Sequence record: OK272476.1 | From: Escherichia phage JLBYU24 | DNA length: 64,000 nt | Strand: one strand, 5' to 3' | Shown: positions 28,751-37,904 of the stretch, piece after piece | How the letters are laid out: each line of letters begins with the position of its first letter | Numbering within the stretch: the stretch's first letter is position 1 | Notes under the pieces: generated by a model | Told to the model about the DNA's origin: nothing | The model's database searches: none | Seen by the model: only the letters and a program-made list of their open reading frames with translations | Translations under genes and position numbers: made by a program

Positions 28751-28928
28751 CTAAACGAATAGGTTCATGAATGCCATATCCCTGAACAGAAATTTCTGTC
28801 GTAGGATAAATTCCATCAATATCACCCATATTCCACGCTTCGTTAAATTGCTGTTCGCCTGAATTACTAAACCACTCGGCGAAAGCATTTAGCACATCTT
28901 TAGAACCTTCAATAATTATCTTTGCCAT
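28707..28928 (-). CDS. Hypothetical protein
   Basis: ORF track. Confidence 0.55.
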   Translation of the reverse strand: MAKIIIEGSKDVLNAFAEWFSNSGEQQFNEAWNMGDIDGIYPTTEISVQGYGIHEPIRLVEYDLCTGEEVKYD

Positions 28929-29290
28929 TATAAGCTCTCAGTAAAGGTACGAGCAATAACGTCGCGCTGCTGTTCCGGAGTCAGAGAATTAAAGCGAACT
29001 GCATAACCTGATACACGGATGGTCAGCTGCGGATATTTTTCCGGATGCTTAACTGCATCTTCCAGAGTTTCACGACGCAGAACGTTAACGTTCAGGTGTT
29101 GACCACCTTCAATTTTAACTGTAGGCTGTGGCTCAATTTCAATTTCACGGGCATGCAAACCGTAGAAAATTTCTGGGTCTACAAAAGAGTCCTCTTTAAA
29201 GGTTTTAGAGACAATAATTCGTGCTTGAATACCATCTTCAAAATAAATAGTACCTTTATGTGTGCCTTCAAGAATTTGATATGCTTTCAT
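28928..29290 (-). CDS. Autonomous glycyl-radical cofactor protein (GrcA/YfiD-like; T4 Y06I-type)
   Basis: 120 aa; C-terminal [60 protein letters not shown] is a glycyl-radical domain (RVSGY) closely resembling E. coli GrcA from memory. Confidence 0.85.
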
Positions 29291-29297
29291 ATAAACC

Positions 29298-29678
29298 TCA
29301 ATTAGAAAATAAATTTATCCAAGATTGTTCTTTAATTAAAAATGGCTCAGAATCATATGCCATTAAACTTTGGGTGATTAGTCCTTTAAAAGGCCCATCA
29401 ATAAATTCCATGGTAAAATATGGAATTTTATTCATTAGCCGTGCATTAGGAGCAGTGCACAAAACTCTGCATCCTTTGAATACGCCTTTTTGTAATTTGT
29501 ATTGCTTGGGATAAAATTCGCTTAAAATGTTATTATTTGCCAAAATTTCAAAATGATTTACCAATTTATTTTTAATAGTTTTTGGCGAAAAATAGAGATA
29601 TTCGAAAAGCTGTGTGTCTGTCATCATTGCATTCCGATTACGAAAAACTGTGGACGAGTAATACCACCAATGCAACAT
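29298..29678 (-). CDS. Hypothetical protein (start possibly 29624)
   Basis: ORF track; TAATG coupling if Met at 29624. Confidence 0.55.
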
Positions 29679-30214
29679 TTACTATTACAGCAGTAGTGTA
29701 CAGTGTCAATATGGACGCTATAAATCTTATCCATATCAGGAGATTTGACAGGCTCATCAATTATATACAAAATTCGCGAAAGCGATAAACCTCTGAACTT
29801 ACTTCCTTTATTACCAATAAAACTGCGCACAGAATCAGTAAATAAACGAAAACGTATATCATCATTAGAATAACGTGAAAATTCCTTTTTAATGTTATTT
29901 GCAGAAATTTTAGCGTAAGCTGAAGTATTAGAAAGAACAATAACTGTTCCGCCATCATACAGCCAATTAGCAGCAAAGTTAGTCACAGCAATTGATTTAC
30001 CGGATTGACGTCCACCATCTAGTCGAAGTGTACAATATTCTTTAAATAAATGCGACGAATCAGGTACATAAAATCCACTATTACAAATTTCTTCTACTCT
30101 AGCATCAGAATGGTGTGTAAAAGCATTCATCAGGGATAGATAAGGACCAGTTAAAAATGTTCTCATTTTATTCTCTCTAAATTTGGGCCATTCCGTGGCG
30201 CATGAATTGTCCAT
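29624..30214 (-). CDS. Small P-loop NTPase-like protein
   Basis: 196 aa; Walker A-like GGRQSGKS, Walker B-like ILYIIDEP, C-terminal Cys cluster CCNSKCC. Confidence 0.6.
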   Translation of the reverse strand: MDNSCATEWPKFRENKMRTFLTGPYLSLMNAFTHHSDARVEEICNSGFYVPDSSHLFKEYCTLRLDGGRQSGKSIAVTNFAANWLYDGGTVIVLSNTSAYAKISANNIKKEFSRYSNDDIRFRLFTDSVRSFIGNKGSKFRGLSLSRILYIIDEPVKSPDMDKIYSVHIDTVHYCCNSKCCIGGITRPQFFVIGMQ

Positions 30215-30307
30215 TTCTGTATTTACCCATTACCGCACTCAGGCTCGACCTTATCACAGGTTGGCGGGAATCCCTCACAGAATCATGAGGTCCAGCTTGT
30301 TCCCATA

Positions 30308-30781
30308 TTATTTGAACGATTTAACGTACTGAATAGAACCTTTACTATTCACAAAGGCAATTTTACCATTTTTATTATACATGGTAGCAGTACGTTGATA
30401 ACCATAAGTTTGTTTACCAGATTGATAACCAACTAATGCGAAATTATCTTCGCCCATTTTATTCTGTTTAGCGCGAATGCGTTCATGACCATGTGCCATA
30501 AGAACCTTAGCATCACCAGTTGCAATGGATCGACGAGTTTTTTCATCTTCAACTGTATTAACAAAGTCGTCAAATGAATCAAATTTAGCATGAGATTTAT
30601 TATACAATTTTCCATCTACTGCATAATTATATCCCTGTACATCCATCTCAACTTCTGTACCATCATCCAATACAGCAGTGATTTTTTGACCTTTTTTAAA
30701 TTTCAAAAGATCAGTAAAAGATTCAGCAATAATTTGAGAATTAATAGCTGCTTCAGTGATAAATTCTTGATATGTTTTCAT
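30308..30781 (-). CDS. Internal-protein-like (capsid-targeted) protein
   Basis: 157 aa; N-terminus MKTYQEFITEA matches the T4 internal-protein capsid targeting sequence; located beside denV/e as ipII/ipIII in T4. Confidence 0.7.
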   Translation of the reverse strand: MKTYQEFITEAAINSQIIAESFTDLLKFKKGQKITAVLDDGTEVEMDVQGYNYAVDGKLYNKSHAKFDSFDDFVNTVEDEKTRRSIATGDAKVLMAHGHERIRAKQNKMGEDNFALVGYQSGKQTYGYQRTATMYNKNGKIAFVNSKGSIQYVKSFK

Positions 30782-30790
30782 ATGTTTCCT

Positions 30791-31207
30791 TTAAATGTAA
30801 ATATTTTTACCGTAATACTTATACCAATGTGGTTTCATTAAAATTTTTTCATCAAGTCGTTGTTGACTCAATTTAATAGCTGATTTGCATGGATTATAAT
30901 CATTTTTCCATTCTACTGGAATATCGCTGATGTCAGGAACTTCAGTATCTTTTATACTGAACCCGCGTTTTAAGCATTCCGTTATAATGTCTAATTGACG
31001 CTTTCGCAAAAATTCTAACTTATCGTAAAAGAACGTAACATGACCAGAACCTAAAATAAACTCGGAAGATATTTTAAAATCTTTAACGCGCTTACCGTTT
31101 GCCACATGCTTACGAACTATACCAAAAACACGCGGCAATTCACGGTATTCTGCGATTAAATGTTGATCAGCAAGTTCAGATACTAAAGTCAAATTAATAC
31201 GAGTCAT
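30791..31207 (-). CDS. denV: Endonuclease V (pyrimidine-dimer DNA glycosylase)
   Basis: 138 aa, [17 protein letters not shown]...WYKYYGK recalled as T4 endo V. Confidence 0.9.
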
Positions 31208-31266: not shown

Positions 31267-32235
<969 letters not shown>

Positions 32236-36498: not shown

Positions 36499-36574
36499 TG
36501 GTCGAGGCAGTAGGGATCGAACCTACGACCTAGGACTTAGAAGGTCCTTGCTCTTCCTTCTGAGCTATGCCTCG
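36499..36574 (-). tRNA. tRNA-Arg (anticodon UCU), CCA encoded
   Basis: Manual fold: acceptor CGAGGCA/TGCCTCG, anticodon stem AGGAC/GTCCT, loop CTTCTAA, T-loop TTCGATC. Confidence 0.85.
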
Positions 36575-36578
36575 GATT

Positions 36579-36653
36579 TGGCGGACGTGATAGGATTCGA
36601 ACCTATAACCAATCGCTTAACAGGCGATCGCTCTGCCATTGAGCTACACATCC
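36579..36653 (-). tRNA. tRNA-Asn (anticodon GUU), CCA encoded
   Basis: Manual fold: all stems canonical; anticodon loop CTGTTAA. Confidence 0.8.
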
Positions 36654-36657
36654 AAAT

Positions 36658-36744
36658 TGGTGGGGAGTGATGGAGTCGAACCACCCGAGTCGCAATGACA
36701 ATGGATTTACAGTCCACACCGCTACCTCTACGGGATAACTCCCC
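36658..36744 (-). tRNA. tRNA-Tyr (anticodon GUA), long variable arm, CCA encoded
   Basis: Manual fold: acceptor GGGGAGT/ACTCCCC, anticodon loop CTGTAAA, long variable arm. Confidence 0.7.
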
Positions 36745-36756
36745 TAATTCATAATT

Positions 36757-36831
36757 TGGTGGCCCTGGGTGGAATTGAACCACCATCTGGCGATTATGAG
36801 TCGCTTGCTTGAACCTTCCAGCTACAGGGCC
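36757..36831 (-). tRNA. tRNA with CAU anticodon (Ile-lysidine type as in T4, or Met), CCA encoded
   Basis: Manual fold: acceptor GGCCCTG/CAGGGCC, anticodon loop CTCATAA. Confidence 0.75.
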
Positions 36832-36832
36832 T

Positions 36833-36908
36833 TGGTGCTGATTGACGGAATCGAACCGCCGACCTTCTCATTACAAGTGAGTTGCTCTACCTACTGAGCT
36901 AAATCAGC
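36833..36908 (-). tRNA. tRNA-Thr (anticodon UGU), CCA encoded
   Basis: Manual fold: acceptor GCTGATT/AATCAGC, D-stem GCTC/GAGC, anticodon loop CTTGTAA. Confidence 0.8.
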
Positions 36909-36913
36909 AAAAC

Positions 36914-37003
36914 TGGCGGAGGCGATAGGATTTGAACCTATGAGTCGCCGGAGCGACTGCCGGTTTTCAAGACCGGTGCATTAAACCACTCTGCCACGCC
37001 TCC
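36914..37003 (-). tRNA. tRNA-Ser (anticodon UGA), long variable arm, CCA encoded
   Basis: Manual fold: acceptor GGAGGCG/CGCCTCC, anticodon stem CCGGT/ACCGG, loop CTTGAAA. Confidence 0.8.
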
Positions 37004-37009
37004 AAATAT

Positions 37010-37660
37010 TTATATATTGTTAATTTGATTTAGAATTCTTTTTGCTTGAGTATGACTTACGCCAATATGCTTAGCATATTTAGACAATTCGCCACGTTTA
37101 GAAAAATCATATAATTTAGAAATTTCTATTCTTCTTTTTCTTTCATCCGCAGAAACTTTTGCTTCGTTTGCTTTTGCTATTTTACGTTTAGCTTCTTGAG
37201 AATGAGTTTTACCAGCAAAGCCATTCTTCATTAATCCATTTGAAGACCATCCTTTTAATTTTCCGTTAGAATGTGCCTTTTTAACACCCAATGAAATTAA
37301 TTCGCGTTGCTGATCTGTCATAGGATAATTATTTATATGGTCCCATCCACCTTCACCTCCAAGTTTTAAATTATACACATCTGGTCTATTTAAAAACTCT
37401 TCTGTGACAATATTTTTCTCGGCTTCAAGCATAGATTCTTTATCGTCAAAATACTCTAATATTTCTTTAGAAAAATTTTCTATACCATATTTATCTTGGG
37501 CTCTTTTTAATAATTTACCAGAACCCATATATCCATCATCTAAATTTTCGGTAGAATGCACACCAATATAAATTTTATTATTAATTTTATTTGTTATTTT
37601 ATAAAGATAAAAATGCATATCAGTCCCTAATAAAGAACTGAGCGTCTCACGACGAGTCAT
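37010..37660 (-). CDS. GIY-YIG homing endonuclease (Seg-like) inserted between the tRNA subclusters
   Basis: 216 aa; GIY-YIG motifs FYLYKITN...KIYIGVH, conserved R/E/N positions, basic C-terminal DNA-binding region; start may be Met at 37618. Confidence 0.8.
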   Translation of the reverse strand: MTRRETLSSLLGTDMHFYLYKITNKINNKIYIGVHSTENLDDGYMGSGKLLKRAQDKYGIENFSKEILEYFDDKESMLEAEKNIVTEEFLNRPDVYNLKLGGEGGWDHINNYPMTDQQRELISLGVKKAHSNGKLKGWSSNGLMKNGFAGKTHSQEAKRKIAKANEAKVSADERKRRIEISKLYDFSKRGELSKYAKHIGVSHTQAKRILNQINNI

Positions 37661-37664
37661 AAAT

Positions 37665-37738
<74 letters not shown>

Positions 37739-37743
37739 AAATT

Positions 37744-37832
37744 TGGTGCGAGAAGTGGGACTCGAACCCACAAGGAAATCATTCCGCAGCATTTTAAGTG
37801 CTGTGCCTTTACCAATTTGACCATTCTCGCGC
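37744..37832 (-). tRNA. tRNA-Leu (anticodon UAA), long variable arm, CCA encoded
   Basis: Manual fold: acceptor GCGCGAG/CTCGCGC, anticodon loop CTTAAAA. Confidence 0.8.
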
Positions 37833-37904
37833 TGGGAATAAAGGACTCGAACCTTTGCATCCTGGAATCAAAATCCAGTGCCTTACCAACTTGGCTAATT
37901 CCCA
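37833..37904 (-). tRNA. tRNA-Gln (anticodon UUG), 3' end abuts tRNA-Leu, CCA not encoded
   Basis: Manual fold: U1-A72 acceptor TGGGAAT/ATTCCCA, anticodon stem CTGGA/TCCAG, loop TTTTGAT. Confidence 0.75.

Follow-up and report, generated by a model that had tools for sequence, protein, structure and literature searches.

Several structured RNAs of phages are associated with tRNA genes. GOLLD and ROOL are structured non-coding RNAs found near phage tRNA clusters, and rnaC and rnaD of T4 are likewise structured non-coding RNAs that occur with tRNA clusters. Among phage ATPases, an arginine within the P-loop is typical of terminases, as in the sequence SRQLGKT of T4 gp17. Theta ribozymes, which are hepatitis delta virus (HDV)-like, are also phage elements next to tRNAs (PMC10879173). 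Here we analysed a 64-kb segment of a Tequatrovirus genome, the 64,000 nucleotides (nt) of Escherichia phage JLBYU24 (OK272476.1) that are called the window below. A preliminary description of this DNA had drawn attention to an open reading frame (ORF) of 196 amino acids (aa) on the minus strand (29624-30214), which is present as described, and to a GC-rich interval upstream of it. We found that the ORF is, by homology, an ordinary, native and already catalogued gene of the T4 family, vs.8. Comparison across phages showed that the GC-rich stretch is a ~125-nt RNA with a conserved base-paired structure on the gene strand, and neither spacer nor foreign DNA. The locus is very probably a native vs.8-vs.7 module of a Tequatrovirus that is preceded by a structured leader RNA.

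The interval 30215-30307, described earlier as GC-richer than its surroundings, indeed has a guanine-plus-cytosine (GC) content of 0.495, compared with 0.351 for the window, and the 125-nt RNA (GC 0.504) ranks in the top 0.8% of all segments of that length. The reported lack of the usual promoter motif was also confirmed, as a consensus scan found no sigma-70-like match in the leader on the coding strand; a reading of the leader as a promoter or terminator was rejected on the same ground. The GC-rich stretch is ~95% identical between the window and T4, despite the different upstream gene. In 39 loci from IMG/VR, nucleotide conservation extends over the 125-190 nt that precede the vs.8 start, even where the Vs.8 proteins share only ~40% identity. 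The region that had been called intergenic is not a spacer but a conserved structured element, which runs on to 30184 inside the 196-aa ORF. A covariance model (R1), built from a MAFFT alignment of 21 sequences of the long type, recovered every T4-like copy. Its sole match in the window spans 30184-30308 of the minus strand and scores 86.8 bits (E 8e-23).

Base pairing in the element is supported by covariation. In the MAFFT alignment of the 21 long-type sequences, 90.6% of the cells pair, compared with 22-45% when the partners were slid. Both partners have changed in nine pairs, and covariation scores 0.174 compared with 0.070 for shuffled alignments, none of 500 of which reached the observed value. 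When 60 distinct instances were aligned with the model, 93.4% of the cells pair; changes on both sides were found in 14 of 23 pairs and 173 cells, including all pairs of P1 and P2, and the covariation score was again attained by none of 500 shuffles. Furthermore, RNAalifold found the pseudoknot pairs, P1b, P3, P4 and the hairpin D2 unprompted in the 21-sequence alignment, and it paired a conserved pyrimidine box, CCCUCUCC, with GAUGG, which extends P1b and shows a CG-to-AU covariation at one pair. In three loci (L023, L038 and L041) a C of P1b and its G partner have been deleted jointly, a compensatory change. RNAalifold failed on a mixed MAFFT alignment of short-type and long-type copies, in which the 5' half was misaligned, and the long-type alignment and the covariance model were used instead.

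The helices define a compact fold; in the window copy, all the base pairs given in Table 1 are canonical. In the pseudoknot (PK), the 5' side of the P1 loop pairs with the segment after the next domain, the 3' tail. This pairing was examined by permuting the partners among sequences: the cognate partners gave a free energy of -6.64 kcal/mol, the permuted ones -4.67 +/- 0.26 kcal/mol, and none of 2000 permutations was as low. The permutation replaced a per-sequence search for the 'best helix', which did not tell real from shuffled sequences. The unpaired bases of the junction are nearly invariant (CGAGCC-NN-AG-Y-GCGGUAAUG). Because G-U pairs occur within several helices, the strand of the RNA can be assigned, and it is that of the gene. 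RNAalifold also returned a hairpin, GUAAR-GGG-UUUAC, that competes with P2 (columns 96-109 of alignment A5, for example L024:2475-2492); it is invariant in long-type copies and absent in other lineages, and could be an alternative conformer.

Several points weigh against a structured leader RNA. The folding stability of the window copy is no better than that of shuffled sequences (z 0.35), and its minimum-free-energy fold (-31.5) beats the nested part of the comparative model (-21.2). PK has just 3-4 base pairs (CUG/CAG) in the short T4-type variant. The statistics of the large alignment (A8) are inflated on two counts, its fitting to the model and the close relationship of many of its sequences. 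In the searchable literature we found no experiment on Vs.8 or the leader RNA. To our knowledge, the classic stable small RNAs of T4 are the tRNAs, rnaC and rnaD, which speaks against an abundant free leader RNA in T4.

The element overlapped no family of Rfam 15, whether in the window (E <=10), in 20 T4-like loci (gathering scores), in a locus with tandem copies (L013, E <=10) or in eight non-T4 loci (E <=1). The motif sequence had no match in full-text literature, and searches on vs.8, the motif and RNAs of phage tRNA clusters returned nothing relevant except the report on theta ribozymes (PMC10879173).

We found that the junction core is not confined to T4-like phages. BLAST and pattern scans detected it in rV5-like Vequintavirus phages such as isim, in the 45-kb coliphage Ivi, in Pseudomonas phage KIL4, in ~46 kb contigs resembling Klebsiella siphoviruses (KP591P1, BUCT541 and ZCKP8) and in further metagenomic contigs. 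Model R1 scored these copies at 28-46 bits (E 6e-6 to 1e-10). P1, PK, P2 and P3 lie at the same positions in them and are made of different sequences, for example GGAG/CUCC, AUAGCA/UGCUAU, GAC/GUU and ACCA/UGGU in KIL4, and GAGGG/CCCUC, CUCCGG/CCGGAG and GCG/CGC in Ivi. The AUGGAY box and hairpin D2 are additions of the T4-like copies to this core. Virulent phages of Escherichia, Klebsiella and Pseudomonas that are otherwise unrelated share the junction sequence at ~90% identity, and such conservation across lineages points to a specific conserved molecular partner or to a catalytic activity. An ancient exchange of the core between phage lineages is likely. The element was not found in 5,426 complete E. 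coli genomes. Among 185,579 bacterial species representatives, 52 matches to the junction pattern were obtained, which is about the number expected by chance; every one of them falls in GC-rich sequence of coding-like character and is without the ACCUG...AAGG stem-loop that adjoins the junction, and they were rejected. The most conserved part of the junction, the 8-mer GCGGUAAU (window 30227-30236, minus strand), equals a piece of the 530 loop of 16S rRNA (..GCCGCGGUAAUAC..). A match of eight bases is within chance expectation, and mimicry of the 530 loop was given no weight.

Outside the T4-like phages, the element is linked to tRNA genes. At most of the non-T4 loci that could be placed, it lies in or beside a tRNA cluster of the same strand, mostly 200-600 nt upstream. 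In KIL4 and L155 it stands between tRNA genes, at one locus it is 43 nt downstream of the cluster, and at L075 and L150 it is 0.7-1.1 kb downstream. ARAGORN detected no tRNA gene in the stretches examined for Ivi, L088 and several short metagenomic loci. In eight loci (L073, L075, L081, L086, L146, L150, L155 and L171), the RNA and neighbouring tRNA or tRNA-like modules are flanked by boxes complementary to each other (..CCGUUGUGAC.. and ..GUCACAACACACAACAGGUAAGAGCAUUG..). The loci with these repeated long-range boxes are ~46 kb contigs resembling Klebsiella siphoviruses, and the boxes could be processing stems. In its association with tRNA clusters the element resembles rnaC, rnaD, GOLLD and ROOL. 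It differs from all four in that the T4-like copy is ~6 kb from the tRNA cluster and is the leader of a protein gene. It is also far smaller (85-150 nt) than GOLLD and ROOL; the sequences of rnaC and rnaD are different, and R1 had no match in the T4 tRNA region (locus L092). We give even weight to the possibility that the element is an undescribed class of phage non-coding RNA, a compact pseudoknot with a three-way junction that is linked to tRNA clusters and is carried by more than 1,000 phage genomes, T4 among them.

In T4-like phages, hairpin D2 (GCCA-NGGAA-UGGC) precedes the ATG of vs.8 by 14-28 nt (median 18) in 37 of the 39 loci, and its stem covaries (GCCA/UGGC, GGCA/UGCC and GACA/UGUC). 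Four loci have an inserted internal-protein (ip) gene; there the full RNA precedes the inserted gene and a copy of D2 alone precedes vs.8. Since D2 was kept before vs.8, it behaves as part of the vs.8 translation-initiation region, and the core as separable from it. An ip-like gene encoding MKTYKEFITEA... was located between the full RNA and vs.8 at L017:2013-2567, L020:1932-2507 and L028:1980-2546, which suggests insertion by recombination within D2. Two diverged cores stand in tandem upstream of vs.8 at L013:2224-2481, L022:2273-2530, L040:2241-2490 and L012:2299-2500, and P4 of the second copy is a clean hairpin of 3-5 base pairs with a CGC loop. One vs.8 locus (L039) has no RNA, and the RNA occurs without vs.8 in other phages; beyond adjacency, no functional connection between the RNA and Vs.8 was seen.

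The assignment of the ORF to vs.8 is consistent with both its sequence and its position. The 1.7 kb around the gene share 99.9% identity with Escherichia phage JLBYU31, and this region has matches in 810 phage records. The protein is 88% identical to T4 Vs.8 (NP_049732; PHROG 1488), a conserved hypothetical protein of the early region, and residues 19-196 match the profile of that family, phrog_1488, at E 3.5e-78. On the minus strand the gene order is e, denV, an ipIV-like DUF7412 gene, the ORF, a 109-aa gene and a GrcA-like gene, and the same stretch of the T4 reference reads denV, vs.8, vs.7, vs.6. The ORF thus stands in the denV-regB early region ahead of vs.7 and vs.6, as Vs.8 family genes do. 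From this gene order and the identity to T4 Vs.8 we conclude that it is the vs.8 ortholog, with vs.7 and vs.6 downstream and the same RNA upstream in both phages. The two loci differ in that the ipIV-like gene separates denV from the element in the window, whereas denV abuts the element in T4. The genes ipII and ipIII of T4 are located between denV and e. With respect to ip genes, the site upstream of the RNA is variable: it is occupied by denV in T4, by the ipIV-like gene in the window and by other ip genes elsewhere. In vs.6 the local GC content reaches 0.50, the only other GC peak nearby; vs.6 is found in only some of the related loci and looks host-derived. The T4 region with the Vs.8-Vs.7 pair also holds the anti-defence gene vs.4 (Acb2). 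The features of the locus are collected in Table 1.

Table 1. Features of the vs.8 locus and its leader RNA. Positions refer to the window unless another record is named.
Feature	Position	Strand	Remarks
Conserved structured leader RNA, full covariance-model match	30184-30308	-	Begins at the stop codon of the ipIV-like gene
RNA core common to unrelated phages	30217-30304	-	Covariation, pseudoknot test and other phage contexts
P1, 5-bp stem	30300-30304 with 30266-30270	-	Covaries at every pair among 60 distinct sequences
P1b, inner hairpin in the P1 loop	30285-30290 with 30273-30278	-	Canonical pairs in the window copy
Pseudoknot PK	30293-30295 with 30217-30219	-	Partner-permutation test
P2, closes the three-way junction	30262-30264 with 30227-30229	-	Covaries at every pair among 60 distinct sequences
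P3, ACCU-GURRNA-AGGU	30258-30261 with 30248-30251	-	Canonical pairs in the window copy
P4, short	30243-30244 with 30235-30236	-	Canonical pairs in the window copy
Conserved junction CGAGCC..AGUGCGGUAAUG	Within core 30217-30304	-	Near-invariant unpaired bases
Hairpin D2, GCCA-CGGAA-UGGC	30187-30199	-	21 nt upstream of the vs.8 start codon; T4-like phages only
RNA element in T4 NC_000866	L001:4319-4443, ~64,818-64,942		Counterpart of window 30184-30308
vs.8 coding sequence as most likely translated, 180 aa, MRTFLTGPYL...	29624-30166	-	Predicted stand-alone RecA-like P-loop ATPase domain
16-codon N-terminal extension of the 196-aa ORF	30167-30214	-	Probably not translated; overlaps the ribosome-binding region and the 3' part of the leader RNA
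Walker A / P-loop GGRQSGKS	29993-30016	-	GGRQ[ST]GK[ST] in 30/30 aligned family members
Walker B and following Glu, ILYIIDEP	29750-29773	-	hhxII[DE]EP in 30/30; E and P invariant
CCNSKCC	29672-29692	-	Lineage-specific, probably disordered loop
vs.7, 109-aa downstream gene	29298-29627	-	Start overlaps the vs.8 stop (ATGA)
vs.6, GrcA/YfiD-like autonomous glycyl-radical cofactor	28928-29290	-	Pfam Gly_radical, E 2.8e-18
ipIV-like internal virion protein gene (DUF7412, phrog_3155)	30308-30781	-	Between denV and the RNA
denV	30791-31207	-	Gene order on the minus strand
e	31267-31761	-	Gene order on the minus strand
Nine-gene tRNA cluster (Arg, Asn, Tyr, Met, Thr, Ser, Gly, Leu, Gln)	36499-37904	-	6.2 kb upstream of the RNA

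The conserved RNA bears on where translation of vs.8 begins. About 24 of 30 homologs start at the methionine equivalent to Met17 of the 196-aa ORF, and most are 173-181 aa long. The PHROG 1488 profile also begins at this residue, and the residues upstream are not conserved. Moreover, the ATG at 30214 corresponds to the AUG within the RNA's conserved AUGGAY box. The first 16 codons of the 196-aa ORF are thus probably not translated. The T4 reference Vs.8 has 219 aa, its coding sequence beginning 39 codons farther upstream, within the RNA element, which those codons cross; this is probably a mis-annotated start codon. JLBYU31 and other records carry a different spurious start, which gives 196 aa.

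Next to the RNA, the protein was examined. The Walker A-like GGRQSGKS and Walker B-like ILYIIDEP noted in the preliminary description are where it put them and are invariant or nearly so in 30 of 30 representatives, all of which have the motifs of ASCE (additional strand, conserved glutamate) P-loop NTPases, Walker A GxxxxGK[ST] and Walker B hhhhD[DE]. The Walker A lysine and serine/threonine, the P-loop arginine and the Walker B aspartate with the next glutamate do not vary, and further conserved features are an R-G pair (R125-G126 of the 180-aa protein) and a helix near the N-terminus, LTxPYLxLMxAF. An AlphaFold model based on a 29-sequence alignment was confident (predicted local distance difference test (pLDDT) 83.5, predicted template modelling score 0.84) and contains a five-stranded sheet with helices at its flanks, that is, the central parallel beta-sheet of a RecA-like fold. 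The P-loop NTPase-like reading was thus upheld by the invariant motifs together with the model, and the vs.8 product is predicted to be a single RecA-like (ASCE) P-loop domain of 180 aa, which may bind and hydrolyse ATP. The size had been called unusually compact, but 180 aa is normal for one RecA-like or P-loop domain. On the other side, the Foldseek matches are generic RecA-like folds (best E 1e-3, template modelling score <=0.53), no solved structure in the PDB matched significantly by sequence, and ATPase activity, oligomerisation and a partnership with Vs.7 are inferences only.

Vs.8 belongs to a small family. A hidden Markov model search of 1.84 billion representative proteins found just 76 relatives at E <=0.001, all of 66-259 aa, and a library of viral structures held similar small uncharacterised proteins in many large phages. 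A relation to the KAP or AAA families, proposed earlier for examination, was not borne out: AAA_14 (E 0.028) and AAA_30 (E 0.34) stayed below the cut-offs, and the NCBIfam and PADLOC searches gave nothing significant, the latter only HerA (E 0.018). The nearest sequence relatives outside the family appear, weakly, to be the ATPase domains of terminase large subunits. The terminase profile phrog_2 matched the window protein at E 2e-5, and distant family members also match terminase PHROGs, so that the link is weak but repeated; Pfam PF03237 (Terminase_6N) reached 12.5 bits, below its gathering threshold of 22. Like the N-terminal domain of T4 gp17 (PDB 2o0h), Vs.8 has the P-loop arginine (GRQxGK[ST]) and a Walker B directly followed by a glutamate, and some depositors have named its homologs 'terminase'. 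Unlike terminases, it has only 180 aa and ends after the fifth strand, at residue 180, without the C-terminal RNase H-like nuclease domain or a translocation domain, and its gene lies in the early region and not in the packaging module. The RecA1 domains of superfamily 1 and superfamily 2 (SF2) helicases fit its fold as well as terminase does. It differs from DEAD-box/SF2 helicases such as DDX20 (PDB 2oxc), which have two tandem RecA-like domains, in being a single domain with no RecA2 partner; the sequence identity is 13-16%, and no helicase family profile matched. Because a nuclease domain and a second RecA domain are absent and the profile scores are below the cut-offs, we place Vs.8 outside both families. 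Its motifs and model indicate a minimal stand-alone ASCE ATPase domain, a small family of its own that is related to the cores of terminases and helicases. Homologs of vs.7 and vs.8 are variously labelled 'endoribonuclease', 'toxin', 'terminase large subunit' and 'terminase-6 domain protein' in GenBank records (H1, H4, H6, H163, H188, H195 and H201). For the first three labels we found no supporting evidence, and 'endoribonuclease' probably spread from the nearby regB gene.

A lone RecA-like domain would normally need a second subunit to complete its active site, and for that reason Vs.8 would most likely work as an oligomer or in a complex with Vs.7, to which it appears translationally coupled and with which it is co-conserved. 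In 30 of 39 loci vs.8 is directly followed by a vs.7 homolog, and the overlap of the vs.7 start with the vs.8 stop makes Vs.7 a likely functional partner. Vs.7 carries only a recent Pfam label (PF26834); its structure prediction (pLDDT 50.7 from four sequences) was unusable. The substrate of Vs.8 would probably be a nucleic acid.

Could the GC-rich region instead be explained by the DNA or the protein it belongs to? A foreign origin had been hinted at in the preliminary description, and the local GC content (0.50 compared with 0.35 for the window) and the variable region upstream of the element, with its different occupants in T4, in the window and elsewhere, are what a recent acquisition of vs.8 and its leader might leave. 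The ORF itself does not stand out in composition: its GC content is 0.346 (z -0.06), and GC at third codon positions (z -0.75) and codon usage (z -0.65) are also within 1 standard deviation of the 66 ORFs of the window. The question of presence or absence among T4 relatives was answered by tblastn, which found one copy of vs.8 in each of 1,009 records, all of T4-like phages of enterobacteria, with identities from 100% to ~39% and including T4, T2, RB69 and JS98. Synteny of the orthologs held at all loci whose neighbourhood was examined; it was seen directly in T4, JLBYU31 and the 39 loci from IMG/VR, and follows for 309 records from the 1.7-kb DNA match. Typical composition and conserved, syntenic orthologs are the very pattern that the preliminary description had set against its own suggestion. 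The leader sequence is itself conserved across T4-like phages, and it was absent from the E. coli genomes and only matched at chance level in the other bacteria. We attribute its GC content to the base-paired structure, which is conserved across phages including T4 itself, so that recent import is not needed to explain it and is hardly credible. It is also very improbable, if slightly less so, that the region encodes an N-terminal extension of Vs.8. The T4 coding sequence starts 117 nt upstream of the MRTFL methionine, short 'MRHG...' extensions occur on some predictions of distant homologs, and in T4 and the window, which have the short T4-type variant, one reading frame is open through the element; this last point tells against our reading, as ORF logic alone cannot rule out coding there. 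However, an 8-nt indel puts the annotated N-termini of T4 and the window in different frames, the T4 frame running into a TAG in the window, and long-type copies have stops in all three frames of the RNA strand. The substitutions in the helices are compensatory and without 3-nt periodicity, the same RNA sequence stands alone between tRNA genes in other phages, and the downstream methionine is the start in most homologs and in the PHROG profile. We judged just as sceptically the idea that Vs.8, by virtue of its cysteine cluster, binds metal or is rich in disulfides in the manner of a toxin. The CCNSKCC noted near the C-terminus is present and places four cysteines within seven residues, and there is a weak match to the conotoxin family Toxin_19 of Pfam (E 0.003). 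The match is below threshold (18.1 compared with 23.2 bits), and the cluster is not a motif of the family: among 30 representatives, all four cysteines occur in three and none or one in 19, the length of the segment varies, and no conserved cysteine pattern of a metal-binding or toxin domain was found. The segment is the one low-confidence loop of the model (pLDDT <50). By its distribution, the cluster is a lineage-specific feature of close T4 relatives.

With the region read as a structured leader RNA, its class can be considered. A metabolite-sensing riboswitch, with the core as aptamer and D2 and the ribosome-binding site as the expression platform for vs.8 translation, would account for a pseudoknot and a junction with near-invariant unpaired bases, which are typical of aptamers, for the 5' untranslated position and the fixed spacing of D2 to the AUG, for the tandem copies in some phages and for the GUAAA/UUUAC hairpin alternative to P2 in long-type copies. 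Yet in those non-T4 lineages that were examined, no regulated ORF adjoins the core, which lies within or beside tRNA clusters or is followed by a promoter, D2 is absent outside T4-like phages, and the gene context points to no ligand, which makes a riboswitch improbable. Somewhat less probable still is a self-cleaving HDV-like (theta) ribozyme that processes polycistronic transcripts of tRNA regions. The element shares with these ribozymes its occurrence in phages, its association with tRNAs (PMC10879173) and the strand order of a nested double pseudoknot: P1 5', PK 5', inner hairpin, P1 3', enclosed stem domain, PK 3'. HDV-like ribozymes have a catalytic cytosine at the first position of J4/2 (PMC10879173), whereas the base after the enclosed domain of the leader RNA is U or G, never C, in 45 unique sequences. 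Nor does the element adjoin a tRNA 3' end. Its distance from tRNA genes is 43 to ~1,100 nt outside clusters in non-T4 phages and ~6 kb in T4-like phages, and even where it stands between two tRNA genes (L155 and KIL4) the separation is always more than 5 nt. The conserved core is not that of the HDV-like ribozymes, the enclosed domain, which they can dispense with, is where most of the conservation is found, and no Rfam ribozyme model matched even at E <=10. Membership in the HDV/theta group was rejected on the catalytic cytosine and on the cleavage site, which should lie within ~5 nt of the tRNA end.

We therefore return to the structured leader RNA with a core shared among phages. In T4-like phages it might act in cis, as the 5' leader of vs.8-vs.7, on expression or mRNA stability, and D2 might affect ribosome loading or mRNA stability. 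The conserved core would be a self-contained module that is recognised by a conserved partner. Because the same core occurs in or beside the tRNA clusters of unrelated phages, this partner may be a host factor, for which RNA polymerase, RNase P and the ribosome are candidates; antitermination of RNA polymerase or processing of the RNase P type would fit a position ahead of untranslated tRNA clusters. Among functions for the core we would rank a module binding a host factor first, a riboswitch second and a new ribozyme third. In a bolder version of this proposal, Vs.8-Vs.7 would be the ATP-driven partner of the leader RNA in T4-like phages.

The result for the protein is mostly housekeeping: a likely start is corrected, misleading labels are removed, and Vs.8 appears as a minimal terminase-like or helicase-like ATPase paired with Vs.7. 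The RNA matters more and is the part worth following up. It matched no Rfam family or searched paper and is annotated as protein-coding in the T4 reference, one of the best-studied genomes, and its small size makes it accessible to direct probing, mutagenesis and structure determination. If it is true that a structured RNA is common, nearly base for base, to unrelated lytic phages and is tied to their tRNA clusters, it would offer a new, testable handle on how these phages deal with untranslated transcripts or with the RNA machinery of the host.

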